From: an uncultured virus (IMG/VR IMGVR_UViG_3300021256_000093)
Taxonomy: Duplodnaviria > Heunggongvirae > Uroviricota > Caudoviricetes
IMG/VR virus record: IMGVR_UViG_3300021256_000093
Direction: 5' to 3' (one strand)
Length of the DNA: 64,000 bases
The notes beneath the pieces are model-generated. The model did not search any database. It worked only from the letters and a program-made list of their open reading frames with translations, and was not told where the DNA came from. Made by a program: the position numbers and the translations under genes. This document shows positions 6,394 to 63,050 of this stretch, one piece after another (position 1 is the first letter of the stretch; every line of letters begins with the position of its first letter).

Positions 6394-6795
6394 ATGAAAA
6401 AATTAAATCAATATATACAAGAAAAATTTATATTAAGTAATGATACTAAACCAGTATATAAATATTTTCCTAAAGATAAAAATAAATTAAGAGAATTAAT
6501 ACTTAATCTTATAGGAAAAAATGGACAAGATGCTGACTTGAATAATATAGATACATCAAAAATAACAGATATGAGCTATTTATTTGCAAATATATCATTT
6601 AATGGTGATATATCTAAATGGAATGTTGAAAATGTTACAGATATGAATCATATGTTTATGAATTCTACTTTTGCTGGTGATATTTCAAATTGGAAAGTTA
6701 CTGATGGTAATTTATATGATATGTTTGAAGATTGTCCTCTTGAACAATGTCCTCCAAAATGGTATTTAGATTGGAAGCATCAAGATTTAGGATAA
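6394..6795 (+). CDS. DUF285/BspA-like repeat protein with capsid-targeting-like leader
   Basis: leader MKKLNQYIQE; DISKWNVENVTDMNHMF repeats; PKWY cap. Confidence 0.85.
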   Translation: MKKLNQYIQEKFILSNDTKPVYKYFPKDKNKLRELILNLIGKNGQDADLNNIDTSKITDMSYLFANISFNGDISKWNVENVTDMNHMFMNSTFAGDISNWKVTDGNLYDMFEDCPLEQCPPKWYLDWKHQDLG

Positions 6796-6815
6796 AATAA
6801 TTTAAAATATAATAA

Positions 6816-7280
6816 ATGAAAACAATAAATCAATATATACAAGAAAAATTTGAGATAAATAAGAATACAAAAAGAACTTATAAATATTCTCCTAAAAATG
6901 AAACAGAACTTCGAAAGATATTAGAAGAACGATTAGCAGAAGATAAAAATGCTGATTTGAATAATATTGATATTAGTAAAATAACTAGTATGAATAATTT
7001 ATTTTATAATTTAGATCCACATAATATTAATATGGAATACTGGGATGTATCTAAAGTTACAGATATGAATAGTATGTTCTTTGAATGTGAGAATTTTGAT
7101 TCAGATTTAAGTAATTGGAATGTATCTCAAGTTAGCTGTATGGATGCTATGTTTTATGGATGTAAAAAATTTACAGGCAAAGGATTAGACGATTGGGAAG
7201 TAACTAATCTTGAAGATATGACATTTATATTTGATGGTTGTGAGTCTTTAAAAAATAAACCAAGTTGGTATAAAGAATAA
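6816..7280 (+). CDS. DUF285/BspA-like repeat protein with capsid-targeting-like leader
   Basis: MKTINQYIQEKFEINKNTK; WDVSKVTDMNSMF repeats; PSWY cap. Confidence 0.88.
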   Translation: MKTINQYIQEKFEINKNTKRTYKYSPKNETELRKILEERLAEDKNADLNNIDISKITSMNNLFYNLDPHNINMEYWDVSKVTDMNSMFFECENFDSDLSNWNVSQVSCMDAMFYGCKKFTGKGLDDWEVTNLEDMTFIFDGCESLKNKPSWYKE

Positions 7281-7285
7281 ATAAT

Positions 7286-7897
7286 ATGAAAACAATAAAT
7301 CAATACATACAAGAAAAATTTGAGATAAATAAGAATACAAAGATTATATATAATTATTTTCCTAAAACAAAAGATGAACTTAGGAAGATATTAGAGGAAC
7401 GATTAGCAGAAAATAAGAATGCTAATTTAAATGATATTGATGTTAGTTTAATAACAGATATGGATTTCTTATTTGAAGATTTAAATCCATATAATATTAA
7501 TATATCTGCTTGGGATGTATCAAATGTTACAAATATGGAATATACGTTTGGTGCATGTACAAATTTTAATTCTGACTTAAGTGGATGGGATGTTTCAAAT
7601 GTTACAGATATGGAATATATGTTTGGCGCATGTACAAATTTTAATTCTGACTTAAGTGGATGGGATGTTTCAAAGGTTATTAATATGGGATATATGTTTA
7701 ATGGATGTGATAATTTCAATTCAGATTTAAGTAGGTGGAATGTAAGTAAAGTTAAAAATATGAAGTCTATATTTAATGGATGTGAAAATTTTAATTCTGA
7801 TTTAAGTAAATGGGATGTTTCAAAGGTTAAAGATATGAGATATATGTTTAACGGATGTGATTCTTTAAAAAATAAGCCAAAATGGTATAAAGGATAA
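7286..7897 (+). CDS. DUF285/BspA-like repeat protein with capsid-targeting-like leader
   Basis: same leader; about five 25-aa WDVSxVxxMxxMFxxCxNFNSDLS repeats. Confidence 0.9.
   Translation: MKTINQYIQEKFEINKNTKIIYNYFPKTKDELRKILEERLAENKNANLNDIDVSLITDMDFLFEDLNPYNINISAWDVSNVTNMEYTFGACTNFNSDLSGWDVSNVTDMEYMFGACTNFNSDLSGWDVSKVINMGYMFNGCDNFNSDLSRWNVSKVKNMKSIFNGCENFNSDLSKWDVSKVKDMRYMFNGCDSLKNKPKWYKG
7511..7860 (+). repeat. 75-nt tandem coding repeat (DUF285 units)
   Basis: units at 7511-7585 and 7586-7660 are nearly identical; more diverged copies follow. Confidence 0.85.
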
Positions 7898-7902
7898 ATT
7901 GC

Positions 7903-8367
7903 ATGAAATCGATAAATCAATACATACAAGAAAAATTCGAATTAAATAAGAATACAAAAGTTTCATTAGGTAATGAATATACATTTAATGGATTTAAAAA
8001 ATTAATTTCATCAGAATTGCATACAACAGAAAATATAAATGATGATATTTTTAAACATATGATTAGCGTATTGTTTAATAATGATAAATCAAAATTAAAA
8101 AATATATCATTTATAAATGTATCAAAAGATAAAGAAGAAATTGATTTTTTTAAAAAACAAATAATTCCAAAAGATAGAGATATATCATATTTTAAAAGCG
8201 CTTATTATATTGATTCAGAAAATAAATTACCAGTATTTCATTATTATAATGTTAGTAAAAAAACAGGTTATCCAAATATGGATATATACCAATATAGAAT
8301 TGGATATAATACAGGCAAAGATATTTTTGATATTTCAACGATTCGTTTATTTAAAATAAATATCTAA
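7903..8367 (+). CDS. hypothetical protein with capsid-targeting-like leader
   Basis: MKSINQYIQEKFELNKNTK followed by a non-repeat domain. Confidence 0.8.
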   Translation: MKSINQYIQEKFELNKNTKVSLGNEYTFNGFKKLISSELHTTENINDDIFKHMISVLFNNDKSKLKNISFINVSKDKEEIDFFKKQIIPKDRDISYFKSAYYIDSENKLPVFHYYNVSKKTGYPNMDIYQYRIGYNTGKDIFDISTIRLFKINI

Positions 8368-8394
8368 TAAAATAAATATAAATATAATATATAT

Positions 8395-9024
8395 ATGAAA
8401 GATTTAAATCAATATATACAGGAGAAATTCGAATTAAATAAGAATACTAAATCATTCTTTACGTATAATTATTTTCCTGAAAGTAAAGCAGAGCTTAGAG
8501 AAATATTAGAAGAACGTTTAAGATATGATAAAAATGCTAACTTGAATGATATTGATGTTAGTAAAATATATTATATGAACAATTTATTTTATGGATTAAA
8601 ACCAGAAAAAATAAATATATCTCATTGGAATATGATTAATGTAAAAAGCATAGAAAATATGTTTTTTGGCTGTGATAACTTAGAATGTGATGTTAGTCAA
8701 TGGGATATATCAGAGGTTCGAAATATGAATGGCGCTTTTGCTGGATGCTATAAATTTAATTCAGATGTAAGTAATTGGAAAGTTAAAAATACAGAAGATA
8801 TGGGTGGACTATTTTGTAGATGTTCAAGTTTTAATCAAGATTTATCAAAATGGGATGTAAGTCATGTAAATAATATGACAAATATGTTTATGAGATGTAG
8901 TGCATTTAAGCAAGACTTAAATAACTGGAAACCTAAATCATTAAAAGAATTTAATAATATATTTAAAGATTGTCCATTACAAAATAATCCACCAAAGTGG
9001 TATGAAAAATTAATTAGAAAATAA
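8395..9024 (+). CDS. DUF285/BspA-like repeat protein with capsid-targeting-like leader
   Basis: MKDLNQYIQEKFELNKNTK; FNQDLSKWDVSHVNNMTNMF; PKWY. Confidence 0.9.
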   Translation: MKDLNQYIQEKFELNKNTKSFFTYNYFPESKAELREILEERLRYDKNANLNDIDVSKIYYMNNLFYGLKPEKINISHWNMINVKSIENMFFGCDNLECDVSQWDISEVRNMNGAFAGCYKFNSDVSNWKVKNTEDMGGLFCRCSSFNQDLSKWDVSHVNNMTNMFMRCSAFKQDLNNWKPKSLKEFNNIFKDCPLQNNPPKWYEKLIRK

Positions 9025-9036
9025 TATATATTATAT

Positions 9037-9813
9037 ATGAAAACTATAAATCAATATATACAGGAAAAATTTGAATTAAATAAGAATACTAAAATTATAT
9101 ATAAATATTTTCCAGTAACAAAAGAAGAACTTAGGAAAATATTAGAAGAACGGTTAGCTAAAGATAAAAATGCTAACTTAAATGATATTGATGTTAGTAG
9201 ATTAGATGATTTGAATGGTATATTTAATCAATTAGATCCATGCGATATTGATATATCACGTTGGGATGTGTCAAAAGTAACAGATATGTCATTTATGTTC
9301 TATAATTGTAAGAATTTTAACTGTAATTTAAGTAAATGGGATGTAAGCAATGTTGAAAGCATGGAATATATATTTTGTAATTGTGAAAAATTTGATGCAT
9401 CATGCTTAGAATCGTGGGAACCAAAAAATATTGATGACTTAGAATATGCATTTTCTGGTGTAAAGAAATTTAATGCAGATTTATCAAAATGGAAAACTAA
9501 TAAAGTAGAAAATATGATTTATACTTTTAAAAATTGTGAAGAATTTACTGGAAAGGGATTAGAAAATTGGAATATGTCTAGAGTAAAAGGAACAGTTGGA
9601 ATGCTTTATAATTGTAAAAACTTTAATATTAATGTAGGAAACTGGAAACTTGATAAAGTAGAACATTCACAATTAATGTTTTATGGTTGTAAATCATTTT
9701 TAGGTAAAGGCTTAGAAAATTGGAATTTAAATAATAGAGCCATACATCAAGTAAATATGTTTGATAGTACTCCTATAGAAAAGAAATTACCAAAATGGTA
9801 TATGACGAAATAA
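9037..9813 (+). CDS. DUF285/BspA-like repeat protein with capsid-targeting-like leader
   Basis: same leader; multiple W(D/N)VSxVxxM repeats; PKWY. Confidence 0.9.
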   Translation: MKTINQYIQEKFELNKNTKIIYKYFPVTKEELRKILEERLAKDKNANLNDIDVSRLDDLNGIFNQLDPCDIDISRWDVSKVTDMSFMFYNCKNFNCNLSKWDVSNVESMEYIFCNCEKFDASCLESWEPKNIDDLEYAFSGVKKFNADLSKWKTNKVENMIYTFKNCEEFTGKGLENWNMSRVKGTVGMLYNCKNFNINVGNWKLDKVEHSQLMFYGCKSFLGKGLENWNLNNRAIHQVNMFDSTPIEKKLPKWYMTK

Positions 9814-9833
9814 TATATAAGAAAAACTAATAT

Positions 9834-10328
9834 ATGAAAACATTAAATAATTTTATTATAGAAAAATTTGAATTAAATAAGAATACAAAGAAAACAATAT
9901 CTTCAGATGTAAATATATTTTATTTTTTTGGAAAGGTTCAATTAAATCAATTTCTAGAATCAATATATTTGTTTAAAGCTGCTTACCATGTAGAAGATAT
10001 TATTTTTAGTTTAGATCAACAATTAACTGGAAATACTATTTTTTGTAGTATTACTGATATAGATAATAACATTTTAAAAGTTGAAAATAGTTATAATGAA
10101 ATAATTAATAAAGATGTATTTAATAAGTTTTTAAATAAATTAAATATGAAAGATACTAGTGACTTAGTATTTCAGAATATAGTAAATAAAGTATTTTTCA
10201 AGCCATATAAATGGTTATATATATGGTATAATAAAGATAAAAATGCTATACAATTACATGTATCTTGTATGGATATGGATAAAATTGAAAAATATAAAAG
10301 TAAAGATATATATTTTAGTACAAAATAA
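9834..10328 (+). CDS. hypothetical protein with capsid-targeting-like leader
   Basis: MKTLNNFIIEKFELNKNTK followed by an unrelated domain. Confidence 0.8.
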   Translation: MKTLNNFIIEKFELNKNTKKTISSDVNIFYFFGKVQLNQFLESIYLFKAAYHVEDIIFSLDQQLTGNTIFCSITDIDNNILKVENSYNEIINKDVFNKFLNKLNMKDTSDLVFQNIVNKVFFKPYKWLYIWYNKDKNAIQLHVSCMDMDKIEKYKSKDIYFSTK

Positions 10329-10822
10329 TGAAAACTATAACTAATATTATACAAGAGAAATTTGAATTAAATAAGAAAACATCCAAATATAGATATTTTC
10401 CTAATAAATTTGAGGATTTAGGAAATATTCTAGATGATAAAATAACTAAGTTTGGATATGGTACTGAAGATAAGCCATTTATTTTAAGTGATATTGATTT
10501 TTCAAAAGTAAATACATTATCAAATGCATTTGATTATATAGATTTTGAATATCTTGATATTTCTGGTTGTAATATTGAGCATATTACTAATTTTAGTGGG
10601 TGTTTTCAAGGTTGTAAGAAATTAAAAAAAGTTATAGGATTTGATACATGGAAATTTGATAAGAATGAATCATATGATTTATCATTTATGTTTTATAGAT
10701 GTACTAATTTATGTGATATAGAAGGATTATATAAATTTAAATATAATAGTGAGCATCATGATATTACAAATATGCTAGAAAGTTGTCCTAAATTAAAAAA
10801 GCCAAATTGGTATCTTAAATAA
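10328..10822 (+). CDS. divergent DUF285/BspA-like repeat protein with capsid-targeting-like leader
   Basis: MKTITNIIQEKFELNKK; LSFMFYRCTNL; PNWY; TAATG overlap. Confidence 0.8.
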   Translation: MKTITNIIQEKFELNKKTSKYRYFPNKFEDLGNILDDKITKFGYGTEDKPFILSDIDFSKVNTLSNAFDYIDFEYLDISGCNIEHITNFSGCFQGCKKLKKVIGFDTWKFDKNESYDLSFMFYRCTNLCDIEGLYKFKYNSEHHDITNMLESCPKLKKPNWYLK

Positions 10823-18677: not shown

Positions 18678-19691
18678 ATGAAACGATTAATAGAATTTAT
18701 TAATGAAGAGCTTAATTCTTCAGAAAAGAAAGCAATCAAAAAATTATATAAATTTTTAAATGAACATACAGGTTCATTAGAAGAGTATGTTGATGCTTTA
18801 AATGATGCTTTAAAAAATGCGGATAAAGGTGATAACGCTAAATATTGGATGGTTGCAATTAAATACTTATTTGATGGTGAACATGGTAAAGATTATAAGG
18901 CGCAAAATCATGTTGCAGTAAAAGTAACAGAGCTTTATCCTACACAATCTGAAATTGATATTGAAAATTCAGCAAAATGGATTACTAAAGATTGGGGAGC
19001 AAAAGGAGCAGGAGATATGTTTAAGAAAGAAGCATTTGGTAAGAAATTCCCAGTCCCTGTATTAGTTTATAAAACAGAAGGAAAATATTGGATTATTGAT
19101 GGACACCACCGTTGGTCTCAAATTGGATTAATTAATAGAGATGCATCATTAGATTGTTTGGTTGTTACAGGTCCTGAAAAAGTTCAAGATTTCTTAAAAA
19201 TCACTCAAGGTGCTATTGCTTCTGTTTTAGCATCAGATAATAAGAATAATGGTAAGAAAGGTGATAAACAATTACCTGTAGGTTCAGCACAACCAGAAAA
19301 TAATATTTTTGGTTCAGCACTTAAAGGAGATAAGCTTAAAGAAAGAATTTCTAAAATGTGTACTGAAAATCTTGATAATTGTAAATTATTACAAGAAGCA
19401 TTAACTAAAGCTAATGTTATTGATAAATCAGGTAAATTTATTAATGAAAGTCAAGACAATCGTAAAGAATTTATTGATAGTTTATCTGAACATGTTATGA
19501 AAAATCGAGATAAAATGCTTGAAGCTAAACAAAATCCACCTAAGTGGGCAGAACCTCGTCCAGTAATGCCACAATCTGATGCAGCAGGTCCTAATGATCC
19601 TAAAAGTGCAAAAGATGGTAGTCCAGAAAATGAAGGTTCAGCATTATATAAAATATTACACAAAGGTAAATTCCCTGATATTGAATCATAA
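18678..19691 (+). CDS. ParB/Srx-like domain protein with capsid-targeting-like leader
   Basis: MKRLIEFINE leader; LYPTQ and WIIDGHHRW. Confidence 0.75.
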   Translation: MKRLIEFINEELNSSEKKAIKKLYKFLNEHTGSLEEYVDALNDALKNADKGDNAKYWMVAIKYLFDGEHGKDYKAQNHVAVKVTELYPTQSEIDIENSAKWITKDWGAKGAGDMFKKEAFGKKFPVPVLVYKTEGKYWIIDGHHRWSQIGLINRDASLDCLVVTGPEKVQDFLKITQGAIASVLASDNKNNGKKGDKQLPVGSAQPENNIFGSALKGDKLKERISKMCTENLDNCKLLQEALTKANVIDKSGKFINESQDNRKEFIDSLSEHVMKNRDKMLEAKQNPPKWAEPRPVMPQSDAAGPNDPKSAKDGSPENEGSALYKILHKGKFPDIES

Positions 19692-26075: not shown

Positions 26076-26399
26076 ATGAAAGATATTAAACATTTTATAT
26101 TAGAATCTATAAATGATAAAAGGCATATTGCTGTAGATAAATATATGGCTAATCATTGGTCTGTATCTATTGATGGACAAACTAAATTTTTTATAAATAA
26201 AGATGGTTTTATATTTAGACCTGATGAAAAACATTTTCAAAAATCGAATTCAATAAATGGTTCAAAAGATGAAAATGATTTAGCAGTATATCATTGTTGT
26301 AATGATGATGATGCAGTACTAGTTAGCAAAGCCATTAATAAAGAAATAGGTAATGATAAAGTTCATTGGGATATGTTTAGGCAAATAAATAAAAAATAA
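26076..26399 (+). CDS. hypothetical protein with capsid-targeting-like leader
   Basis: MKDIKHFILE. Confidence 0.75.
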   Translation: MKDIKHFILESINDKRHIAVDKYMANHWSVSIDGQTKFFINKDGFIFRPDEKHFQKSNSINGSKDENDLAVYHCCNDDDAVLVSKAINKEIGNDKVHWDMFRQINKK

Positions 26400-27653: not shown

Positions 27654-27998
27654 ATGAAAGATATTAAGACATATTTATTTGAAACACAAGGAGAACACGA
27701 TAAAAGTAAAGTTTATGATGATTTATATGCTGATGTAGAACCATATCTTAAAGATTGGGGAGCAGGTCCTGTTTATGGTTGGAAAGGTGACCAAGGAATA
27801 GCATTCCAAGTAACTAAAGGAAAAAATATTAGTAAAAATGATTGGATTGTTATTAAATATAATAAACAATATGATGACTTAACAATTTTACTTTCAGAAT
27901 ATGGCTCTGGAGATGAAGATTCTGCAAAAGAAATTGAAGATAATATTTATGCAGGGCAAGAAGCAAATATTATTAATCAAATGTTAGGTATTAAATAA
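27654..27998 (+). CDS. hypothetical protein with capsid-targeting-like leader
   Basis: MKDIKTYLFE. Confidence 0.75.
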   Translation: MKDIKTYLFETQGEHDKSKVYDDLYADVEPYLKDWGAGPVYGWKGDQGIAFQVTKGKNISKNDWIVIKYNKQYDDLTILLSEYGSGDEDSAKEIEDNIYAGQEANIINQMLGIK

Positions 27999-47453: not shown

Positions 47454-47458
47454 AATTT

Positions 47459-47803: not shown

Positions 47804-47814
47804 AATATAATTAA

Positions 47815-48099: not shown

Positions 48100-48147
48100 A
48101 TATATCTTTAATATATTTTTATATCTTAAATATAGATTAAATAATTA

Positions 48148-48909
48148 TTATTTTTTAATGTTCCACTCTAAAATATTTATTGTGAGATGAGAATTTTCGA
48201 TGGTATAAGTGCATTTTGTGATTTCGATGACCTTATTCTTAACTCTCTTGCTCTTTCCTTTAATTGTTGGCATGTAATAGGGATAACCATCATAGTAATG
48301 AGCAACCACTTCAGGAAACTTATAGGTTATTGCTGATGTGCTGTAAATACCATCTGCATTGGGGTATCTTAAAATGTGTTCTGTGATAGCTTTTTGGTTT
48401 TCAATTCGCTTGATGATGATTTGCATGTCTGACTGAGCTTTGAGCTCTTCAGGAGTAGTGATTGCCATCTTCTTCGTCACGAATGGACCAATATGAACTT
48501 CTTTTGTTTCGATAACGTATCCATGCGCCTCAAGTACCTTTAAGATGTAACGTTTTTGGTCGTTGTTATCGATGGTCTTGTAGTACCATTCGAGATATTT
48601 CATGTCATTGCACTCATTGATGTTCTGTCCGCGATACTTACCGAAGTGGAATGTCTTAACGCCTGTATAAGTTGTTTCCCACTCACAGAACGTTTTGTTT
48701 TTATTTTCAAGGACCTCAAGGATAGGAAGACCTGGCATCTTCTTTTCTGCGATGTTCTGATATTTAGAAACCTTGCGTCCGTAGATGTAACGCGTGATAG
48801 TTTTGTCGCAACCAGCATAGGGCGAGTAAGTTTCAACGTTAACTGTCCAAACTGCGTAGAACTTGCCAGTGAAACCGAGAACCTTGTTAGAACTGATGAG
48901 AGTAGTCAT
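48148..48909 (-). CDS. hypothetical protein with FGKYRG (DUF3820-like) motif
   Basis: FHFGKYRGQ...YLEW; visibly higher GC than flanks. Confidence 0.7.
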   Translation of the reverse strand: MTTLISSNKVLGFTGKFYAVWTVNVETYSPYAGCDKTITRYIYGRKVSKYQNIAEKKMPGLPILEVLENKNKTFCEWETTYTGVKTFHFGKYRGQNINECNDMKYLEWYYKTIDNNDQKRYILKVLEAHGYVIETKEVHIGPFVTKKMAITTPEELKAQSDMQIIIKRIENQKAITEHILRYPNADGIYSTSAITYKFPEVVAHYYDGYPYYMPTIKGKSKRVKNKVIEITKCTYTIENSHLTINILEWNIKK

Positions 48910-48938
48910 AGTAGTGGTCTTTTATCTGATTACATAAT

Positions 48939-48967
48939 AATATAGTAATTTTTTATATAATGTTTAA
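48939..48967 (-). promoter_or_regulatory. putative class I promoter TTAAAC-N17-TATATT
   Basis: recurring motif; the 16-mer TACATAATAATATAGT at 48931 is shared exactly with 44891. Confidence 0.55.
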
Positions 48968-49129
48968 AAAATAAATAAAAAATATATATATTAATTATTT
49001 ATTATTTATTTTGATTTTAAGGGCCTTTTATACTATGAGATATATATTTACTTATCTTATATAAAAGAAGCCCATAGAATCAATCTATGAGCCAAATAAA
49101 GCATATTATTATAGATATTTATAAAACTA

Positions 49130-51160: not shown

Positions 51161-51192
51161 AAAAATGGAATGCTTTAAGCATTCCATTTTTT
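51161..51192. terminator. bidirectional intrinsic terminator
   Basis: AAAAATGGAATGC-TTTAA-GCATTCCATTTTT. Confidence 0.88.
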
Positions 51193-51662
51193 TATTTTTT
51201 AAGTTTACTTCCATATTCTTGAATTATATATACCAATTGAGAATTATTATGAATTTCATAAATAAAACATGAATGTTCAGTAGTATGTAAAAAATTCAAA
51301 ATAAGTGAAGATGAAGATATATGGTCTTTATACTTAAATATAATTCGTAAAGCATGTGTTCTATCTAAGAAATTCGTAAATGCATCTGAATTATCTATAA
51401 GATATAATAAATTAGAGTCTTTAGAAGTATTAGAAGATAGAAATTTATAATCTCCATTCAATATACTTAAATATTTATCAATTATAATATTTTCTATTTG
51501 CTTAGAACAATTTAATGTATCACGTAAATCTTTAATACTTACAAAATTACCATTACCATATTTATCTTTAAATTCTTTTAATGATTTTGATTGAGAATTT
51601 ACAATATGAGTGTTTTTATTAATCTCAAATTTTTCTTGAATATAACTATCTAATTCTTTCAT
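51192..51662 (-). CDS. hypothetical protein with capsid-targeting-like leader
   Basis: MKELDSYIQEKFEINKNT. Confidence 0.8.
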   Translation of the reverse strand: MKELDSYIQEKFEINKNTHIVNSQSKSLKEFKDKYGNGNFVSIKDLRDTLNCSKQIENIIIDKYLSILNGDYKFLSSNTSKDSNLLYLIDNSDAFTNFLDRTHALRIIFKYKDHISSSSLILNFLHTTEHSCFIYEIHNNSQLVYIIQEYGSKLKK

Positions 51663-51665: not shown

Positions 51666-52193
51666 TTATTTTTGATTTTTTATTTCTACTGCGATAATTT
51701 GTAAAGTATCGATAAATAAATCATAGTTTGTTACATCTTCAGGTTCTTCATTTTGATTTAAATATATATTCTGATCAACTTCTTTCCATTTATATAAAGA
51801 TGTTAATTTATCTGTTAAATTAGATATTAAATCATAAATATCTTTATATCCCTTACCATCATTATTATACATATCTTGAATGATTTCTTTCTTAGATTTA
51901 TCATTCATTTGAGATAGAGCTTTATATACACCTCTTTCCCATAATTTTTTACATGTATCATCATTAGAAATCAAATATGTAATATCGCCAATCCATGCTT
52001 TAATACCATCTTTACCAACACTTTTATAAGTACCCGTCGTTGATTTAGCTAATGAATCAATCTTTATTTTTGCTTTATTGATACGATTCATAATATCTTG
52101 TGTTTTCTTGAACTTTCCAAATACATTATCAATAAATGCTTCTTGAACAATTTGATATTGACTTTCTAATATATATTGATATAATGCTTTCAT
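51666..52193 (-). CDS. hypothetical protein with capsid-targeting-like leader
   Basis: MKALYQYILE...IVQE. Confidence 0.75.
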   Translation of the reverse strand: MKALYQYILESQYQIVQEAFIDNVFGKFKKTQDIMNRINKAKIKIDSLAKSTTGTYKSVGKDGIKAWIGDITYLISNDDTCKKLWERGVYKALSQMNDKSKKEIIQDMYNNDGKGYKDIYDLISNLTDKLTSLYKWKEVDQNIYLNQNEEPEDVTNYDLFIDTLQIIAVEIKNQK

Positions 52194-56564: not shown

Positions 56565-57089
56565 TTATTTACGATATTCTAATGAATCTTCGTCAAACTT
56601 AATTTCAATAGGATATTTATTATAATTATTTGATTCAGCTGCTTTGAATATATCTTTAAGTTTTTCTTCAACTGTATCATCATCTACACCAGTCAAGTCA
56701 AATAAATTAAATGTTATAATATACTTAAGATTTTTGATTCTAAAATATTCTAATTTAATATCATCATTATTTGACTTACTAGTATCATATTTAGAATCCC
56801 ATTCTATATAATCTTTAGGTTCTATATCAAAATGTTCAAATGTATCATATTCAAAATGTGCATCTGAAATACTTTTACTATTTACACCAAAAAGTTTATG
56901 TGATTTAGTATCAGAAGATGGCAATTCATTAAGCCATTTATCATCTAAATAAATTTGAATATCTGACTCACTATATGTTTCAGGAGCTTGTATAATAAGT
57001 TCATCTGGCTGTACAAAATATGTCGCAATTACTTCAGTTAATCGATATATGTCTACAGCTTCAATAATAAATTGTTGTAATGATTTCAT
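56565..57089 (-). CDS. acidic hypothetical protein with capsid-targeting-like leader
   Basis: MKSLQQFIIE. Confidence 0.75.
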   Translation of the reverse strand: MKSLQQFIIEAVDIYRLTEVIATYFVQPDELIIQAPETYSESDIQIYLDDKWLNELPSSDTKSHKLFGVNSKSISDAHFEYDTFEHFDIEPKDYIEWDSKYDTSKSNNDDIKLEYFRIKNLKYIITFNLFDLTGVDDDTVEEKLKDIFKAAESNNYNKYPIEIKFDEDSLEYRK

Positions 57090-57105
57090 AACGTATAATA
57101 TATAT

Positions 57106-57149
57106 CTTATATAAAAATAAAAAAACTAATCAAATATTGATTAGCTTTT
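57106..57149 (-). terminator. terminator (57121-57149) directly followed by a class II-like promoter motif (57106-57119)
   Basis: CTAATCAA/TTGATTAG hairpin; TATTTTTATATAAG on the minus strand. Confidence 0.6.
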
Positions 57150-57173
57150 ATAATTAAAAATTTTAAATATAAT

Positions 57174-57581
57174 TTAAACTTTTCGATACATTTTTTCTCT
57201 AATGTTAAAATCTGTTTTAGAACCTTTATTTTCTACAAATCCAAATTTTTTATAAAACTTTTGTAATCTAGAAACTGAAGAAGCTCCAAATGATTTATCT
57301 GGAGTCAAACAAATTATCTTCCCATACATATCTGCCCATCTGCATAGGTCTCTCATAAATATACTACCATATCCATTTCCTTTATCATTCATAATAATTT
57401 TATCTAATGTAATATAATCATCATTATCATTTAAAGTCTTAGATATAGTTAACTCTTTTAAATTATATTTTTCTTTTAAGCTATCAGTAGCAAATATAAC
57501 TTTACTATTATTCAAACCATTTAAAAATTCAAATAGTTCATTAGATAATGCTTCAATAATATAACTATTTAATGTTTTCAT
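57174..57581 (-). CDS. GNAT-family acetyltransferase with capsid-targeting-like leader
   Basis: MKTLNSYIIE; KGNGYGS acetyl-CoA motif; LQKFYKKFGF. Confidence 0.85.
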   Translation of the reverse strand: MKTLNSYIIEALSNELFEFLNGLNNSKVIFATDSLKEKYNLKELTISKTLNDNDDYITLDKIIMNDKGNGYGSIFMRDLCRWADMYGKIICLTPDKSFGASSVSRLQKFYKKFGFVENKGSKTDFNIREKMYRKV

Positions 57582-57583
57582 AT

Positions 57584-58357
57584 TTATTTAAACTTATTAT
57601 ATGCTGCTGCTAATTTCTGGTCATATTTATTTGCTTTATATCCTGAGCCATTATATCGATATGCTATTTGTGCCCAGTTCTTTTGTTGCATATAAGGTAC
57701 AATACCTTTTGCTTTAATGAACTTAATAAATGAATAAAAATGAGTATCTTCAGATTTGCATAATGCTTGGTAGAATTCTTTAGCTGAATTATATCCACAT
57801 ACCTTATAGTTAAGACCCATTATTTGGAACATACCATAAGAAGCAGATTCATATGCTGCAGCTTCATTAATCTTAATTGCTTTTTGAAGACGTGCATATT
57901 CACCTGAATTCTTACCAGTGTAATGGGATTTAGTCCATTTAGGATAAAGAATATCTTCATTACCTTTTACATATTTATTAGGGTCAATTTTACGTGCTTG
58001 TAATTGCTTCCAAAATACATGACCTTCAAATAACATTGTAGGTATACCATTTTGCATAGCCACACCGCCACATTCTACTGTCTTAACTGCTTTCAATACT
58101 GCAACTTCAACATTAAGTTCAACAGCTGCTTTAATATAGTCGGCATCTGTTAATTTATTTGATTTTAAATCATTTTCAATTAACTTTAGCCATGTTTTAG
58201 GACCTACAATTCCATCAGCTAATAATCCATGGTCAGTTTGCCATTTCTTAACTGCTTCTGTAGTCTTAGGACCCCATACACCATCTTGAGTAACACCCAT
58301 ATATTTTTGGAGTAACTTAACATCTCCACCTTTAGAACCTTGTTTAATAGTATTCAT
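57584..58357 (-). CDS. endolysin: peptidoglycan-binding domain + DUF3380 N-acetylmuramidase
   Basis: DGVWGPKT...DGIVGPKTW; LFEGHVF, SASYGMFQIMGLNY, YNGSGY, YDQKL. Confidence 0.93.
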   Translation of the reverse strand: MNTIKQGSKGGDVKLLQKYMGVTQDGVWGPKTTEAVKKWQTDHGLLADGIVGPKTWLKLIENDLKSNKLTDADYIKAAVELNVEVAVLKAVKTVECGGVAMQNGIPTMLFEGHVFWKQLQARKIDPNKYVKGNEDILYPKWTKSHYTGKNSGEYARLQKAIKINEAAAYESASYGMFQIMGLNYKVCGYNSAKEFYQALCKSEDTHFYSFIKFIKAKGIVPYMQQKNWAQIAYRYNGSGYKANKYDQKLAAAYNKFK

Positions 58358-58365
58358 AATATTTT

Positions 58366-58869
58366 CTAATTTAATTCTTTATTTATATTTTGCGCGGAAT
58401 ATAACTTATAATCATTATTTGGATAACTAATATTTAAAAAATACATTTTATCTTTATGCTTGAAATATAGGTCATCTTTAGTAAATATATTATTATCTCG
58501 ATATCCATGATAATCAATATCTACATTTATATAAAATACAGGATTATTGTTATTATCTACAATGATAATATTCCCATATTCTTTAACTTCATCTGATCCA
58601 AAATTTCTACGTTGAAATGGCAAACTCTTAATTTTTATTTTACTATTTCTTTCATATTCAAATATTGATATTGCTTTTAATTTAGATAACTGTGTATTTT
58701 GCTTATTAAAATTACGTGCTAAATCATCTATAGTTGTTGAAGTCGCAGCTAAACGAGAACAATTAATACCATTCATTAATTGTTCAATAACTTTAATAAT
58801 TTGATATGATACAGAAGTATTTTTATTGATTTCAAATTTTTCAGATATAATAGATTTTAAAGATTTCAT
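58366..58869 (-). CDS. hypothetical protein with capsid-targeting-like leader
   Basis: MKSLKSIISEKFEINKNT. Confidence 0.8.
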   Translation of the reverse strand: MKSLKSIISEKFEINKNTSVSYQIIKVIEQLMNGINCSRLAATSTTIDDLARNFNKQNTQLSKLKAISIFEYERNSKIKIKSLPFQRRNFGSDEVKEYGNIIIVDNNNNPVFYINVDIDYHGYRDNNIFTKDDLYFKHKDKMYFLNISYPNNDYKLYSAQNINKELN

Positions 58870-59310
58870 TTAGTTTTTTACATCAATATATTTCTTTCTA
58901 TAGTCTACCCAATCATCCCAATACATTTTACTACCATCCATAGTAATATTATATTTACTTATTTTTGCTGATTTAAAATTAACTAATATTGAACAAGCAG
59001 GTACTGAATATTTTTTTATAAATTTATATACATTAGTAGATGTCCTTATAAATTCTGTAGTACTAAAATTATAATTATAATAAGTATTTAATATTTCTGC
59101 AATATCTTTATAATTAACTTGAGTACGCTGAACATTGAATGTACCTAATCTAGCTCCCTCTTTATATGAACGATTCTTATATATAGATATATATGTTGCA
59201 CGTATTATATCCTTCAGCATATCTTCATTAGTATCATCAAAACGAGTAAATGCTTTTGTATTATTACTTATTTCAAATTTTTCTATAATATAATTAACTA
59301 GTAATTTCAT
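58870..59310 (-). CDS. hypothetical protein with capsid-targeting-like leader
   Basis: MKLLVNYIIEKFEISNNTK. Confidence 0.8.
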   Translation of the reverse strand: MKLLVNYIIEKFEISNNTKAFTRFDDTNEDMLKDIIRATYISIYKNRSYKEGARLGTFNVQRTQVNYKDIAEILNTYYNYNFSTTEFIRTSTNVYKFIKKYSVPACSILVNFKSAKISKYNITMDGSKMYWDDWVDYRKKYIDVKN

Positions 59311-59327
59311 CTTTAATATAAGTATAT

Positions 59328-59804
59328 TTATAATACATATCTTTCTACCTCATCTTTATATAAAAGTATATATGCGTCAAGTACAGTTAATTTAGAATCT
59401 AATAAAATATATATTGTAAATAGTGCATCATTAGAAATTAAATGACATAATTTTAATTTGTACTGTTCATTTTCTAAATCAAAATTGTATTCACTTTTCT
59501 TTGTTCTCTTAAGTAATTCATCAGGTAGCTCAATTATATCATTATTTATAAATTTATATGTATGGTCTGGTAAATGATATATATTTTCTTTAAAATTCCA
59601 TCTTGCAAAACATTTTGTTTTTAATGATTTGCCATGTCGTAATAATGTTGTCTTTTTAAATGATTCAAATTTTTCACCAGAAAAATTATATTTAATATGT
59701 AAAAAATTAAGCCATTCATCAAACATCATATAACCTTTATGATTATATGTTGTATTCTTATTTAACTCAAATTTTTCTAATATACTAGTCTTTAGCGATT
59801 TCAT
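59328..59804 (-). CDS. hypothetical protein with capsid-targeting-like leader
   Basis: MKSLKTSILEKFELNKNT. Confidence 0.8.
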   Translation of the reverse strand: MKSLKTSILEKFELNKNTTYNHKGYMMFDEWLNFLHIKYNFSGEKFESFKKTTLLRHGKSLKTKCFARWNFKENIYHLPDHTYKFINNDIIELPDELLKRTKKSEYNFDLENEQYKLKLCHLISNDALFTIYILLDSKLTVLDAYILLYKDEVERYVL

Positions 59805-60057
59805 TCTTTTTTAAAATTGCTTTGAATATATTTTTTGAATCTAAATTAACTTTATATTGTTGTTTCAATAATGATTTTTTAGATTCATCACCATACCATC
59901 CAACAGGTTTAACAATATATTTAGTATCTGTTATATCTATAATTTCTCCAATTACAGTTATTTTAGTTGTCTTATATATAACATAATCGCCTGTATTCAA
60001 TTCAGAACCAAGTGAATCATAGTTAGCTTCTTGAATATAAGTTAAAATATCTTTCAT
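59785..60057 (-). CDS. small SH3-like protein with capsid-targeting-like leader
   Basis: MKDILTYIQE; DSLGSELNTGDYVIY. Confidence 0.72.
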   Translation of the reverse strand: MKDILTYIQEANYDSLGSELNTGDYVIYKTTKITVIGEIIDITDTKYIVKPVGWYGDESKKSLLKQQYKVNLDSKNIFKAILKKNEIAKD

Positions 60058-60063
60058 ATATAA

Positions 60064-60657
60064 TTAAAACTTATCTATTTCTTTTCTTCCTGCAACTAAG
60101 TCATCTAAGAAATCTTGTAATAATTGTAAATGCTCTTCTTCGTCAGCAAGTATTTCTTTACATTTTTTCTGTGTTGTCCAATCTTTTGATAATGAAGCTA
60201 TTTCTACTAATTCTCTATAAGTTGAAATTGCATCTTTTTCATTACTAATATTAGTAAATAATGTTTCTTCTAAAGGAATAACTATATCATCAGAACCTTC
60301 AACACCACTTTCTTTAGTATACTTATGTTCCCATCTTGGTGAGCGATATGTATGTGTTGCAGTTAACCATGACGCCGGACTTGCAGTAATATCTTCAATA
60401 GTACCACCGAGTTCATTAATACGTTTCATAAGCCAATATGCATGGTCCTCTAATTCATCTTTAGCAGTTTCTTCATATAGCTTAACTACATCAGGTCTTT
60501 GTGAGCCTACTAAAAATTCTTTAACAATTATATATCCATACCATGCATTTAATTCTTCTTTAAGTGCATTTTTTAATTTTTCAATAATAAGTCTTTTTGA
60601 TTCTGAATCTAACCATTCATCAGCATATGCTTCATTAATTTGCTTAAGTGTTTTCAT
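60064..60657 (-). CDS. ferritin/Dps-like di-iron protein
   Basis: EELNAWYGY, DELEDHA..L..RINELGG, EKDAI..Y, ILADEEEH; leader MKTLKQINE. Confidence 0.88.
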   Translation of the reverse strand: MKTLKQINEAYADEWLDSESKRLIIEKLKNALKEELNAWYGYIIVKEFLVGSQRPDVVKLYEETAKDELEDHAYWLMKRINELGGTIEDITASPASWLTATHTYRSPRWEHKYTKESGVEGSDDIVIPLEETLFTNISNEKDAISTYRELVEIASLSKDWTTQKKCKEILADEEEHLQLLQDFLDDLVAGRKEIDKF

Positions 60658-60860: not shown

Positions 60861-60901
60861 ATCATAAATAATTATATTAAGAAATATGAAAAATGAATAT
60901 A

Positions 60902-61280: not shown

Positions 61281-61288
61281 ATTTTATA

Positions 61289-61492
61289 TTAAAATAATTT
61301 TTTAAATAACTTACAGATAACATATATAGGCCAAAACAATATTAAACAAATCCAATACATAAATAACATATTTGACTCTAATGTATCTGTTTCTAATAAA
61401 TCATCATGTATAGGTTTTATATAATTAAACCAATCATAAATACCTATTAATATTCCAATAATTAAATATATATAAAATAGAATTTCAGCCAT
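61289..61492 (-). CDS. small two-TM membrane protein
   Basis: two hydrophobic segments; YxxxG and FWP motifs. Confidence 0.65.
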   Translation of the reverse strand: MAEILFYIYLIIGILIGIYDWFNYIKPIHDDLLETDTLESNMLFMYWICLILFWPIYVICKLFKKLF

Positions 61493-61596
61493 ATTATTTA
61501 TATAAATCTTTAAATATTTTCAAATATTGGCATTCTTTACATTTACTATTATTTGGAGTGCATCTTATATGACAATATCTTAAATTAACTATGTAT

Positions 61597-61821
61597 TCAG
61601 CATTGGTAATCATACAATTCTTCCATCATGTCTTTTTTAAGTTGTTTTCTAACTTTAGTTTGACCAGCTTTACGAATTTTTCCAGCATTACGTTTACGAG
61701 ATCCTCCATAAGGTTTATCATCATTTTCAAAATAATGAGTAGGATAAACCATTCCTTGTTTATAATTATGAGGCATTGATTCCTCTAATAATCGTTTACC
61801 TGTTGCCATATTAATATCCAA
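61597..61821 (-). CDS. small basic hypothetical protein
   Basis: 74-aa K/R-rich ORF. Confidence 0.6.
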   Translation of the reverse strand: MDINMATGKRLLEESMPHNYKQGMVYPTHYFENDDKPYGGSRKRNAGKIRKAGQTKVRKQLKKDMMEELYDYQC

Positions 61822-62500
61822 TATCTTCTTTCATAATATCAAATTCATCAGTATAAGTTTTATTATATCCATTAAACCATTTATAATAGAATTCAATTAT
61901 CTTACGTTTCCATTTCTTAGGTGAATATTTTTGAATAGTATTATAATGATTAAATGCCCATTTATAATTATCAATTTTGTCAATAGGAATCCACTTTACA
62001 GATTCAACTTCATTTTCTTCTCCACCTTCTTTATTTACATAATGCGGAATAATCTTACCTAGAAATGCGATATGACGAATTGTTACGTTTCCATTATTAC
62101 ATTCTTTAGGATTTGTTTCTGTATATACTTCTCGTAAATCATCTGTATCAATTTGGAATCCACATTCTTCTAAAGTTTCTCTTGCAATTCCTTCTTTAGC
62201 ACTTTCATATCTTTCAAGGTACCCACAAATAGCATTCCAACAACCTTGATAATCAGGTGTACCAGAACCACGAAGATTTGCTAAGATAGAGTATTTACCA
62301 TTAACAATAGCATATATAAATCCAGATACTGCACAAAACCTTCCAGAATATACTATTTTAGGATCTCCTGTACATGCATACCTTTGTGCTTGTGTCTTTT
62401 TTGAAATTACTTTATTTACTACTTCAGGTTTCCATGCATAATATGGAAAATTTCTACCATACTTTTCCAAGTTATCTTCATTAGGTCTTGTAAAAATCAT
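61811..62500 (-). CDS. NUDIX hydrolase
   Basis: Nudix box GYLERYESAKEGIARETLEECG; WAFNH; likely start at 62500 (MIFTRP) because a promoter motif lies at 62539-62567. Confidence 0.88.
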   Translation of the reverse strand: MIFTRPNEDNLEKYGRNFPYYAWKPEVVNKVISKKTQAQRYACTGDPKIVYSGRFCAVSGFIYAIVNGKYSILANLRGSGTPDYQGCWNAICGYLERYESAKEGIARETLEECGFQIDTDDLREVYTETNPKECNNGNVTIRHIAFLGKIIPHYVNKEGGEENEVESVKWIPIDKIDNYKWAFNHYNTIQKYSPKKWKRKIIEFYYKWFNGYNKTYTDEFDIMKEDIGY

Positions 62501-62538
62501 ATGAACTAAATTTATTAAGTTATTTTTAATTATATATA

Positions 62539-62567
62539 AATATAGGAACACTATTTAAATTATTTAA
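62539..62567 (-). promoter_or_regulatory. putative class I promoter TTAAAT-N17-TATATT
   Basis: recurring motif. Confidence 0.5.
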
Positions 62568-62573
62568 TATTAT

Positions 62574-63050
62574 ATGAAATCTATCGATAATTATATTTTA
62601 GAAAAATTTGAATTGAATAAGAATACAAAGATTGACCCAAAATCATATATTATTCATAATAGTACATTTATATGTAATTCAGCAAAAAGTGATTTAAATA
62701 ATTTATTAGAAAAAGAAAATATAGATTTATTAATAGTAGATAAATCTAAAGATAAAATACTTAATTTTATATATAGTAATTTTAAAGATACATTAGGTAA
62801 ATTTTATATTTATAAAGATGATGAAGAACAAAATCGTATTTCAAATAAGATACAGCAAGCAATAGCATATTATCGTAAATTTACAAGTGAACAATTAAAT
62901 AATGATGATTTATGGTTATCTACATTATCACAAAATAATAATCAGGTAGGAAGACTATTAATGATAAAATATAAAGATAAATGTTCTGAAATGTTTATCG
63001 TCCCAAATAGTAATAATAGTAAATTAATATATTGGATTATTAAATTATAA
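62574..63050 (+). CDS. hypothetical protein with capsid-targeting-like leader
   Basis: MKSIDNYILEKFELNKNTK; lone plus-strand gene. Confidence 0.8.
   Translation: MKSIDNYILEKFELNKNTKIDPKSYIIHNSTFICNSAKSDLNNLLEKENIDLLIVDKSKDKILNFIYSNFKDTLGKFYIYKDDEEQNRISNKIQQAIAYYRKFTSEQLNNDDLWLSTLSQNNNQVGRLLMIKYKDKCSEMFIVPNSNNSKLIYWIIKL

Follow-up and report, generated by a model that had tools for sequence, protein, structure and literature searches.

Thirteen open reading frames (ORFs) in the window, by which we mean the whole 64,000-nt stretch of DNA that was analysed, have a 19-residue N-terminus in common. They lie in four loci and on both strands (Table 1), and all were present where an initial annotation of the sequence had placed them. 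Residues 1-10 (the leader) follow the pattern M-K-x-(L/I)-x-x-(Y/F)-I-x-E and are succeeded by K-F-(E/I)-(L/I)-(N/S)-(K/N)-(N/D/K)-T in residues 11-19 (the tag). Proteins with the leader and this 9-residue extension are referred to as tagged, and those with the 10-residue leader but without the extension as leader-only. Seven further ORFs of the window are leader-only, and the leader is thereby carried by 20 of its 79 larger ORFs, approximately one in four. The tagged genes are arranged in tandem arrays. The tagged gene at 51192..51662 adjoins a leader-only gene (51666-52193). Most leader and tagged genes in the window are apart from recognisable head genes, their neighbours being genes for RecA, muramidase and a ferritin-like protein.

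Table 1. Tagged and leader-only genes of the window. Coordinates are those of the whole stretch; the start is the first position of the ORF on its own strand.
Feature	Position	Strand	Start	Length (aa)	Tag position	Body and remarks
Tagged gene	6394..6795	+	6394	133		DUF285 body, PF03382 66.8 bits; leader codons 6394-6423
Tag K11-K19 of the 6394 gene	6424-6450	+				KFILSNDTK, the copy deviating most
Tagged gene	6816..7280	+	6816	154	6846-6872	DUF285 body, PF03382 102.9 bits; tag KFEINKNTK
Tagged gene	7286..7897	+	7286	203	7316-7342	DUF285 body, PF03382 195.2 bits
Tagged gene	7903..8367	+	7903	154	7933-7959	Orphan body; no Pfam or PHROG match
Tagged gene	8395..9024	+	8395	209	8425-8451	DUF285 body, PF03382 141.4 bits
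Tagged gene	9037..9813	+	9037	258	9067-9093	DUF285 body, PF03382 162.7 bits
Tagged gene	9834..10328	+	9834	164	9864-9890	Orphan body; no Pfam, PHROG or PADLOC match
Tagged gene	10328..10822	+	10328	164	10358-10384	Divergent DUF285 body, PF03382 30.0 bits (cut-off 25); tag KFELNKKTS
Tagged gene	51192..51662	-	51662	156	51606-51632	Orphan body; no Pfam or PHROG match
Tagged gene	58366..58869	-	58869	167	58813-58839	Orphan body; no Pfam, PHROG or PADLOC match
Tagged gene	58870..59310	-	59310	146	59254-59280	Orphan alpha/beta body; tag KFEISNNTK
Tagged gene	59328..59804	-	59804	158	59748-59774	Orphan body; no Pfam, PHROG or PADLOC match
Tagged gene	62574..63050	+	62574	158	62604-62630	Orphan body; no Pfam or PHROG match
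Leader-only gene	18678..19691	+		337		ParB-like nuclease domain; leader end INE, then E-L
Leader-only gene	26076..26399	+		107		Leader end ILE, then S
Leader-only gene	27654..27998	+		114		Leader end LFE, then T
Leader-only gene	51666..52193	-		175		Leader end ILE, then S
Leader-only gene	56565..57089	-		174		Leader end IIE, then A; ortholog in contig G1 likewise leader-only
Leader-only gene	57174..57581	-		135		Leader end IIE, then A
Leader-only gene	59785..60057	-		90		Leader end IQE, then A

The motif EKF[EI][LI][NS][KN][NDK]T occurs 13 times in a six-frame translation of the window, always within a tagged ORF and with its Glu at residue 10 from the Met (13/13); no matches were found in 30 first-order Markov simulations of the window. 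The similarity extends to the coding DNA of leader and tag, as previously suggested, since the 26-mer singled out in the initial annotation matches 11/13 tagged genes with ≤3 mismatches and gave no matches in 100 dinucleotide shuffles. No conservation was found in the DNA 5′ of the ATG of tagged genes. Tagged genes were also found in a related 170-kb contig (G1) and a second related contig (G2), and in these two and the window taken together every match to the tag core (31/31) falls at residue 11.

Unrelated bodies behind a common N-terminus

Six of the 13 tagged proteins are DUF285 paralogs, members of the BspA-like leucine-rich-repeat proteins (PF03382, 30.0-195.2 bits, Pfam gathering threshold 25 bits), in which the Pfam match begins at residue 42-53, so that the tag is outside the domain. 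The other seven have no Pfam family and resemble neither one another nor DUF285. Moreover, AlphaFold predicts different folds for the DUF285 body and the 58870 body. Ordinary paralogy, with full-length homology of the 13 proteins, had been raised as the alternative to a separate tag and is ruled out by the seven unrelated orphan bodies and the differing predicted folds.

In the AF2 model of the 7286 protein (mean pLDDT 93.2) a helix spans residues 4-16 and the DUF285 body starts from approximately residue 21. In that of the 58870 protein (mean pLDDT 82.8, with residues 1-20 at ~46) the helix spans residues 4-11 and is followed by coil; the body of this protein had no PDB fold match at E≤0.001. 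Both N-terminal segments are of low confidence and lie apart from the confident body. Over residues 11-20 the two models average a pLDDT of 54 and 47 and drop below 50 in places, and only one of them extends the helix as far as residue 16.

A profile of the first 30 residues retrieved 46 representatives at E≤1e-3 from 1.84 billion proteins, all of the matches beginning at target residue 1, and a 40-residue profile retrieved 130 proteins at E≤0.01. From contigs of related huge phages and from metagenome proteins, 197 unique tagged proteins (≥100 aa) were collected, which fall into 63 body clusters. DUF285 is the largest (82/197), and the tag is also present on the 62 other clusters. The leader-profile search proposed in the initial annotation reveals bodies that swap at approximately residue 20. 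In this pooled set the relative entropy is 1.3-6.2 bits over positions 1-19, 1.09 at position 20 and ~0.3 from position 21; the 1.7-3.1 bits per position of the tag itself are partly built in by how the proteins were collected. Two kinds of natural fusion proteins carry the tag internally, directly after a kept I-x-E. Of the hydrophobic residues, L038 and P0113, which are of one kind, have lost both that at position 4 and that at position 7, and L039 and L049, of the other kind, the one at position 4. Identity between L038 and P0113 is 102/113 before the tag junction and 41/68 after it; breaks in identity of this mosaic kind are indeed seen at the tag.

Selection on the tag and its genome-specific versions

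The dN/dS of the tag is 0.13 over all 13 window genes and 0.08 over the eight with unrelated bodies. Its pS (0.56-0.64) is at the level of an unaligned control (0.48-0.53). An absence of purifying selection, which would have spoken against a functional tag, was thus not observed, and judged by these substitutions the tag is selected as a peptide. Positions 12-13 are FE in 12/13 window genes, LH, LK or LQ in 19/19 G1 genes, and LI or LV in 10/11 genes of contig 3300028888_000058. The version follows the genome and not the body family, with DUF285 and 58870-family bodies carrying that of their own genome. Homologs of the 58870 protein from three other sources have the tag in a different version, and the ortholog of the 7903 gene product (P0002, 88% identical) has kept the tag. 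Such genome-specific versions suggest a recognised signal.

A quite different explanation is that the leader DNA of ~57 nt is mainly a recombination handle, copied along whenever a new body is captured, and that the 9-mer has no function. Swapping of bodies at about residue 20 in 63 clusters, the tandem arrays and the drop in identity between L038 and P0113 across the tag would all be expected from such a handle. Moreover, the Lys16 codon is AAG in 9/11 window genes and 3/3 G2 genes, compared with 25% genome-wide, which is a shared DNA signature of descent. However, the synonymous sites of the tag are as diverged as unaligned sequence whilst its amino acids are kept, the Leu12 codons of G1 (TTA, CTT, CTC) in some cases differ at two positions, and the DNA upstream of the ATG is unconserved. 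The peptide pattern is also kept across genome-specific versions and the 46 + 130 database matches. A handle without function is therefore very improbable. Of the reading put forward in the initial annotation, the conserved second element, the modular bodies and the purifying selection stand, but a leader that is only a recombination handle fits the synonymous divergence poorly.

Two leader classes and the protease of related contigs

Tagged and leader-only genes number 13 and 7 in the window, 19 and 11 in G1, and 4 and 3 in G2. None of the 27 leader-only ORFs has Lys at residue 11 (P1′), although residue 12 (P2′) is often hydrophobic in them too. In the sequences compared here, the leader proteins fall into two classes according to whether they have the tag extension, which probably singles out packaged proteins of a separate kind, packaging itself being predicted. 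Given the absence of Lys at P1′ from the leader-only class, cleavage of the tagged proteins might differ or not take place.

Both related contigs with tagged genes (2/2) contain Peptidase_S77 above the Pfam cut-off. In each, this prohead protease of the T4 gp21 type is fused to a repeat scaffold, and in G2 its gene adjoins that of the major capsid protein. No match to Peptidase_S77 was found among the 54/79 window ORFs scanned, and no protease, scaffold or capsid genes of the window's own were seen. The protease-scaffold protein has 2583 relatives at E≤1e-10, and the huge-phage clade thus appears abundant in metagenomes. The repeats fused to the protease contain W-(I/V)-x-E-E-F and the capsid protein contains L-T-E-N-F, which together with Y-I-x-E-K-F at the tag give a common arrangement of aromatic/aliphatic, I/V/L, x, E, x, F. 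As P2′ is often hydrophobic in leader-only ORFs too, and likewise at the presumed sites of scaffold and capsid protein, at least K11-F12 may belong to the cleavage site. P2′ of the repeats is Phe in G1 as well as in G2, though the G1 tags have Leu12, and no covariation was found in G1 and G2 between the tag and these repeats, its candidate partner.

We tentatively favour, as having a nearly even chance of being correct, the reading that the 19 residues act together as a single modular cassette for loading cargo, made up of a T4-type capsid-targeting sequence (CTS) and a second recognised element, and that it belongs to a clade of huge phages which are AT-rich and have T4-type heads. Head packaging, the cut after E10, the docking partner and any function of the stub that the cut leaves are all parts of this reading that we infer. 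Residues 1-10 would be the counterpart of the T4 CTS, positions 4 and 7 being hydrophobic and the closing I8-x-E10 being the site motif of gp21-type (S77) proteases. Residues 11-19 (K, F/L, x, I/L, N, K, N/D, T/I, K) would be a second element recognised as a peptide, in which F/L12 and I/L14 most likely extend an amphipathic docking helix that a polar N-K-N-T-K cap would end. The whole helix would dock the protein onto the prohead core, with the acidic repeats of the protease fusion as candidate receptor. The protease may then cut mid-helix after E10, so that the cargo is freed but keeps a short basic stub. Proteins with the cassette would form a class apart from leader-only cargo, small (107-258 aa in the window and G1) and with a fast turnover.

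Alternatively, as the initial annotation mainly supposed, the leader alone may load the protein and then be removed, leaving the 9-mer as a mature N-terminus and second address for retention on DNA or core, ejection order, or a host role (localisation or timed turnover). This would be one of two or more ways for such a recognised element to act. T4 needs only 10 residues for targeting (PMC9026906) and leader-only ORFs do without the extension, so the 9-mer is dispensable for a leader protein and not obviously required for docking or cutting. In both fusion kinds the tag is internal after I-x-E, with one or both of the upstream hydrophobics lost. The tag is also basic (K11, K16, K19), as are the T4 internal proteins, and its purifying selection and genome-specific versions, the latter implying a recognised signal, would suit a mature N-terminus. 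However, the fusions provide only two independent cases, L038 and P0113 being close relatives, no receptor for such an N-terminus is known, and residue 12 is often hydrophobic in leader-only ORFs, as it is at the presumed sites of scaffold and capsid protein. We consider a purely post-cleavage role for the 9-mer rather unlikely. Much the same doubt applies to the 9-mer being a true second address that sorts cargo into two classes, with a dedicated, co-evolving phage-encoded receptor and an exposed Lys-Phe/Leu N-terminus active after the cut. That N-terminus would hold DNA or core, set ejection order or serve as a host degradation timer, for which N-end-rule type signals offer a model. A receptor co-evolving with the tag would explain the genome-specific versions. 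If true, this bipartite arrangement would be the first loading-and-fate code for phage-injected proteins.

Comparison with known systems

The T4 CTS of IPI, IPII, IPIII and Alt, which is removed by gp21, is likewise of ~10 residues, starts with M-K and ends in I-x-E (PMC9026906, PMC3012670, PMC12373910). Section 2.6 of PMC9026906 assigns its positions 4 and 7 to targeting and 8 and 10 to processing, and these key positions are matched by the leader described here. Among the 63 body-cluster representatives, position 4 is Leu in 31, Ile in 29 and Phe in 3, and position 7 is Tyr in 47, Phe in 8, Ile in 6 and Ser in 2. I8 and E10 are each found in 63/63, though the collecting pattern also permitted Asp at position 10. 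Both signals are on otherwise unrelated small proteins, and the T4 genes are in variable loci according to the same three papers.

This likeness could still be superficial, and the module a shared N-terminal helix for some other role in the infected cell, such as a phage or host partner, oligomerisation, localisation or regulated degradation. The module is connected to the capsid by sequence likeness and not by experiment, the window genes that carry it are mostly away from head genes and near those for RecA, muramidase and a ferritin-like protein, and 20 of 79 larger ORFs would be a very large cargo set. Such a role is nevertheless improbable in our view, as the matched positions are the functional ones of the T4 signal, I8 and E10 are invariant, the S77 protease is present in both relatives examined, and the presumed scaffold repeats have the same I/V-x-E motif.

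If the favoured loading cassette is taken up again, it departs from T4 in several respects, the split of the leader proteins by the extension being one. Ip1-3 of T4 have nothing but the leader in common according to the Discussion of PMC12373910, and the T4 accounts cited here report no conservation beyond the cut among the cargo, whereas nine more residues are kept here across at least 63 body clusters. T4 also has a handful of cargo proteins, in contrast to 13 + 7 putative ones in the 64-kb window and 19 + 11 in the 170-kb contig. Ip1-3 inhibit host restriction enzymes (PMC9026906, PMC3012670, PMC12373910). The T4 internal proteins are injected anti-defence weapons, and the same principle seems to be scaled here to dozens of genes per genome. 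If true, the 19-residue cassette would give a simple sequence criterion by which to catalogue the proteins that uncultured giant phages inject, as well as a small natural tag with which foreign proteins could be loaded into phage heads, and cargo sorting and release in large capsids would become directly testable.

Lastly, in the giant phages phiKZ, 201phi2-1 and SPN3US, gp21-like proteases cleave after Glu in N-terminal propeptides of head and ejection proteins (PMC5694885). The SPN3US paralogs gp53 and gp54 have identical N-termini in proteins that are only 34% identical, which the authors of that study liken to the T4 CTS. The propeptides it describes are mostly of more than 100 residues and common to paralogs, whereas here a 19-residue module is found on unrelated bodies and, unlike those propeptides, is conserved past the presumed cut. 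Seen against both systems, and with packaging and cleavage predicted, the second conserved element after the putative cut site is a new departure from the T4-type signal.

Tagged genes, their bodies and their spread

Thirteen ORFs of the window begin with a ten-residue leader, M-K-x-(L/I)-x-x-(Y/F/I/S)-I-x-E, followed directly by the tag K-F-(E/I)-(L/I)-(N/S)-(K/N)-(N/D/K)-T (residues 11-19 being the tag region). The initial annotation had placed them at four loci on both strands, and this was borne out in full. Six-frame translation of the window returned 13 matches to the motif class, with the Glu always at residue 10 from the Met, and 30 Markov simulations returned none. The 26-mer given in that annotation was present in 11 of the 13 genes at ≤3 mismatches, compared with 0 in 100 shuffles. 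The window is low in G+C (0.21-0.33 in 2-kb windows), looks like phage DNA, and encodes RecA, a T4-like baseplate wedge protein, a gp2-like DNA end protector and a muramidase (Pfam/PHROG).

Coordinates of tagged loci and associated features in the window, in the related IMG/VR contigs G001 and G002 and at locus L038
Feature	Coordinates	Strand	Remarks
Tagged locus 1	window 6394-10822	+	eight tandem genes directly after recA
Tagged locus 2	window 51192-51662	-	single gene
Tagged locus 3	window 58366-59804	-	three genes
Tagged locus 4	window 62574-63050	+	single gene
recA	window 5332-6375		bacterial-type; Pfam RecA, E = 1.5e-124; adjoins the tandem tagged array
Fibre-like protein	window 33899-41797		2632 aa; PHROG matches of tail-fibre type
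Run of presumed cargo genes	window 56565-60657	-	two leader-only, three tagged and one leader-only gene
Muramidase	window 57584-58357	-	within the run; peptidoglycan-binding domain, no leader
Ferritin-like protein	window 60064-60657	-	within the run; shortened leader ending I-N-E, then A
Tagged-gene cluster	G001 about 18-28 kb		contains recA
S77 prohead protease	G002 47367-49124 (L057:7370-9124)	-	585 aa
S77 prohead protease	G001 144558-146303 (L067:4561-6303)	-	581 aa
Fusion gene	L038 306-1169		leader-only module joined to DUF285 protein

Ordinary full-length paralogy, the explanation against which the initial annotation had set its two-part tag, held for six genes only. DUF285 (PF03382) was found in 6/13 tagged proteins (30.0-195.2 bits, cut-off 25), and the other seven (146-167 aa) matched no Pfam or PHROG family in scans that took in 54 (Pfam) and 42 (PHROGs) of the 79 larger ORFs. 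When the bodies (residue 20 to end) were compared by BLASTP, links were confined to the six DUF285 proteins (E 1e-5 to 4e-52), with no pair outside this family below E = 0.6. AlphaFold2 models also differed: the 7286 protein, a DUF285 member (mean pLDDT 93.2), has a repeat body with short, isolated single-residue strand marks that is almost free of helix past residue 42, and the 58870 protein (mean pLDDT 82.8) has a mixed helix/strand body unlike it. Therefore, paralogy is limited to the six DUF285 genes and fails for the other seven. The 58870 model had no PDB match at E≤0.001 (Foldseek), an ESM Atlas search with the 9834 protein gave no usable match, and PADLOC returned a single row, a Cas13a match below threshold (E 0.0015) in the 62574 protein.

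Nucleotide searches of a phage collection (blastn) gave weak matches, to Lak megaphages only, and tblastn with the 30-residue N-terminus and the database protein P0109 as queries gave no match. A strict DNA pattern matched a single IMG/VR contig, a looser leader pattern retrieved mostly other families, and a word-based search with the first 40 residues of the 7903 protein retrieved that protein and a single ortholog. Back-translation of the tag into DNA patterns gave matches to IMG/VR contigs of 10-435 kb. Two related contigs with tagged genes, G001 (170 kb, estimated 60% complete) and G002 (95 kb, estimated 31% complete), were examined over their full length; both have about 27% G+C, similar to the window, and these two fragments have few genes in common with it. 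G001 RecA is 68% identical to that of the window, and a 439-aa stretch in G002 is 51% identical to the fibre-like protein.

Profile searches widened the distribution. A 30-residue profile of the 13 proteins (alignment A1) had 46 matches at E≤1e-3 among 1.84 billion representative proteins, all starting at target residue 1. A 40-residue profile built from 54 N-termini (alignment A3), run against the longer proteins of a 5.8-billion-protein collection, gave 130 matches at E≤0.01 among 7996 candidates scored; PF03382 is present in about half of the 120 matches listed, the others having no Pfam domain, and the contigs bearing some of these listed matches reach 442 kb. The window, G001, G002, other loci and profile matches were then pooled, leaving out shorter fragments and three proteins without the tag pattern in their first 40 residues. 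The resulting 197 unique tagged proteins of at least 100 aa fell into 63 body clusters (single-linkage BLASTP, E≤1e-3), the largest being DUF285 with 82 members. With one representative per cluster, relative entropy was 1.3-6.2 bits over positions 1-19, fell to 1.09 at position 20 and stayed near 0.3 from position 21 onwards; the tag conservation in this set is partly a product of how it was collected, which the abrupt end at residue ~20 is not. The tag core starts at residue 11 in 31/31 matches from the window, G001 and G002. The proposed swap of bodies at residue ~20 was thus found, and the module extends well past the window and is more than paralogy.

A scan of bacterial genomes yielded 7 loci, with real tagged ORFs in only two (L069 and L071); in one of these the leader is 11 residues long. 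The two contigs, 39 kb and 20 kb in size and both AT-rich, had been assigned to a Clostridia MAG and a Bacilli MAG. They are probably phage DNA binned with bacteria, and therefore give no reliable clue to the host.

Selection, cargo classes and genome-specific versions

All window genes compared pairwise by the Nei-Gojobori method gave a dN/dS of 0.13 for the tag (codons 11-19, 13 genes; pS 0.56, pN 0.126), 0.37 for the leader (codons 2-10, 13 genes; pS 0.531, pN 0.277) and 1.9 for an unaligned control (codons 20-28; pS 0.48, pN 0.65), where pS is overestimated under this codon usage and the control is equally biased. Across the 8 window genes with unrelated bodies, tag dN/dS was 0.08; in G001 it was 0.34, with Leu12 encoded by TTA, CTT or CTC. 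Purifying selection on the tag, which the initial annotation had left to be checked, is therefore present. The same annotation had offered a recombination handle, by which new domains would gain virion delivery; we regard such a handle, if it has no function of its own, as very improbable.

Tag codons mostly follow window usage (Thr18 is ACT in 5 and ACA in 8 genes, Glu13 GAA in 8 and GAG in 4), and five codons occur at position 14. Lys16 alone departs clearly from this usage, with AAG in 9/11 window tags as against 25% genome-wide; AAG also occurs in 3/3 G002 tags and about 5/16 in G001. This is a lineage-specific DNA signature within a tag otherwise diverged at synonymous sites. An RNA- or DNA-level signal is unlikely, since synonymous sites of the tag have diverged as much as unaligned sequence, and recent gene conversion is unlikely for the same agreement with the control.

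Leader-only ORFs accompany the tagged genes in all three genomes: the window has 7 beside 13 tagged, G001 has 11 beside 19, and G002 has 3 beside 4 (one tagged gene duplicating another over the first 30 residues). In the window they carry A, S, T or E directly after the leader. Residue 11 is Lys in 0/27 leader-only ORFs, being A, S, T, E, G, D, N or H instead, and Lys11 is therefore always accompanied by the rest of the tag. Larger enzymes occur in the leader-only class, with a ParB-like nuclease encoded by the window and proteins of 306-631 aa by G001; the tagged proteins of these two sources measure 107-258 aa.

The tag also comes in genome-specific versions. Positions 12-13 read FE in 12/13 window genes, with G002 of the same kind, LH, LK or LQ in 19/19 genes of G001, and LI or LV in 10/11 genes of contig 3300028888_000058, which has its own leader version too (I, F or S at position 7). 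The DUF285 and 58870 body families bear the version of the genome in which they are encoded; in the latter family the tag is KFEISNNTK in the window, KLIINKNTK at locus L040, KLKLDKNIK in the database protein P0073 and KLHLNKDFE in G001. Thus, tags are more similar within a genome than between orthologs. Because synonymous sites have diverged, we infer that the tags of a genome probably co-evolved with a partner encoded by the phage and common to them all, and that recent homogenisation is the less likely cause.

Other N-termini of similar build were encountered. Eight IMG/VR loci (L004, L008, L009, L015, L016, L022, L025 and L029, one on a contig of 405 kb) encode M-K-(L/I)-(V/I/L)-(R/K)-E-(H/Y)-I-N-E-K-F-E, then (S/T)-D-P-(I/V)-x-D-(M/L)-(G/N)-I-G, then differing bodies; in view of this second type, leaders in two parts may be a wider phenomenon. 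Proteins of about 160-162 aa with a similar leader (L003, L005, L012, L013, L017, L019-L021, L023, L024 and L027) form a further conserved family, in which the leader is followed by a run of acidic residues and the motif N-V-T-(G/A)-N-(M/L)-D-G-G-E-G-P; its members look homologous over the parts read.

A putative loading cassette and a candidate protease

We tentatively favour a reading in which residues 1-19 would act as a single loading cassette, made of a T4-type capsid-targeting sequence (CTS) and a second recognised element that would lengthen the docking helix and then cap it. A Peptidase_S77 enzyme, the T4 gp21-type prohead protease, would cut mid-cassette after Glu10 and so free a cargo protein that retains a short basic stub. 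In both AlphaFold2 models the first 20 residues are of low confidence and lie apart from the confident body. The 7286 model has a helix at 4-16 (mean pLDDT 70 for residues 1-10, 54 for 11-20 and <50 at 14-16), and the 58870 model a helix at 4-11 followed by coil (mean pLDDT about 46, residues 1-20). Hydrophobic positions 4, 7, 8, 12 and 14 would fit one amphipathic helix, with N-K-N-T-K as its cap.

Peptidase_S77 scored above the curated cut-off in both G001 and G002, and in G002 the gene adjoins those for the major capsid protein, tail sheath and tail tube. With such a protease encoded on contigs that carry tagged genes and a leader of T4 type, a function unrelated to the capsid appears improbable. 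Downstream of the S77 domain the protein has a linker that is acidic and rich in D, E and K, then 12-residue repeats in tandem, W-(I/V)-x-E-E-F-A-P-E-V-Q-N, whose number differs among 27 aligned homologs; a search for the family gave 2583 members at E≤1e-10 out of 7996 candidates scored. Because every repeat bears an I/V-x-E motif, the domain looks, from its sequence, like a scaffold built for cutting into 12-mers. The repeats, the capsid protein (L-T-E-N-F) and the tag junction (Y-I-x-E-K-F) have in common the pattern aromatic/aliphatic, I/V/L, x, E, x, F, and K11 and F/L12 may therefore be part of an extended cut site. In addition, the basic tag could plausibly dock on the acidic repeats; no covariation was seen between tag version and protease repeats, Phe standing at P2' (the second residue after the presumed cut) in both G001 and G002. 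A second cut at Glu13 was rejected, as position 13 can be E, H, K, I or V depending on the genome, and so was removal of the whole 19-mer by S77, as no conserved Glu lies near residues 19-20.

The initial annotation had proposed that the 9-mer may function after cleavage, as the mature N-terminus, and natural fusions bear on this idea. At L038 and in the database protein P0113, a 109-aa leader-only module, in G002 a separate gene adjoining a tagged DUF285 gene, is joined in frame to a DUF285 protein. At the junction hydrophobic positions 4 and 7 are gone, and Q-I-(S/T)-E followed by K-L-I-I-N-K-N-(T/I)-K is kept; the two proteins are identical at 102/113 positions before the junction and 41/68 after it. 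L039 and L049 encode a domain of at least 216 aa, then F-I-(D/N)-E plus K-L-(K/R)-I-N-K-D-T-K, then a body of about 118 aa. Therefore, the tag remains joined to the I-x-E site inside proteins, which fits a putative role at or after the cut. However, these are two independent cases only. We consider action solely after cleavage unlikely. The four proteins are fusions or polyprotein-like: if the site were cut, one gene would yield two head proteins.

Comparison with known loading leaders

T-even internal-protein genes have been proposed to shuffle at a shared leader. According to section 2.6 of PMC9026906, T4 internal-protein propeptides comprise 10-19 residues, the first 10 residues of IPIII are enough for loading, residues 4 and 7 serve targeting and 8 and 10 processing, and Asp at position 10 stops processing. 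The leader is the sole common part of T4 Ip1-3, which inhibit GmrSD-type restriction enzymes (PMC12373910). None of the papers listed by a literature search describes an element conserved beyond the CTS cut, or T4-type leaders in megaphages, and a term search of a paper on gut jumbo phages found no mention of N-terminal motifs or DUF285 (PMC12880540). The propeptides of giant phages are longer than the leader here, and the N-termini of SPN3US gp53 and gp54 are identical (PMC5694885). Compared with these systems, the module is, as judged from its sequence, a putative bipartite and genome-specific version of the T4 loading leader, one that divides the presumed cargo into two classes.
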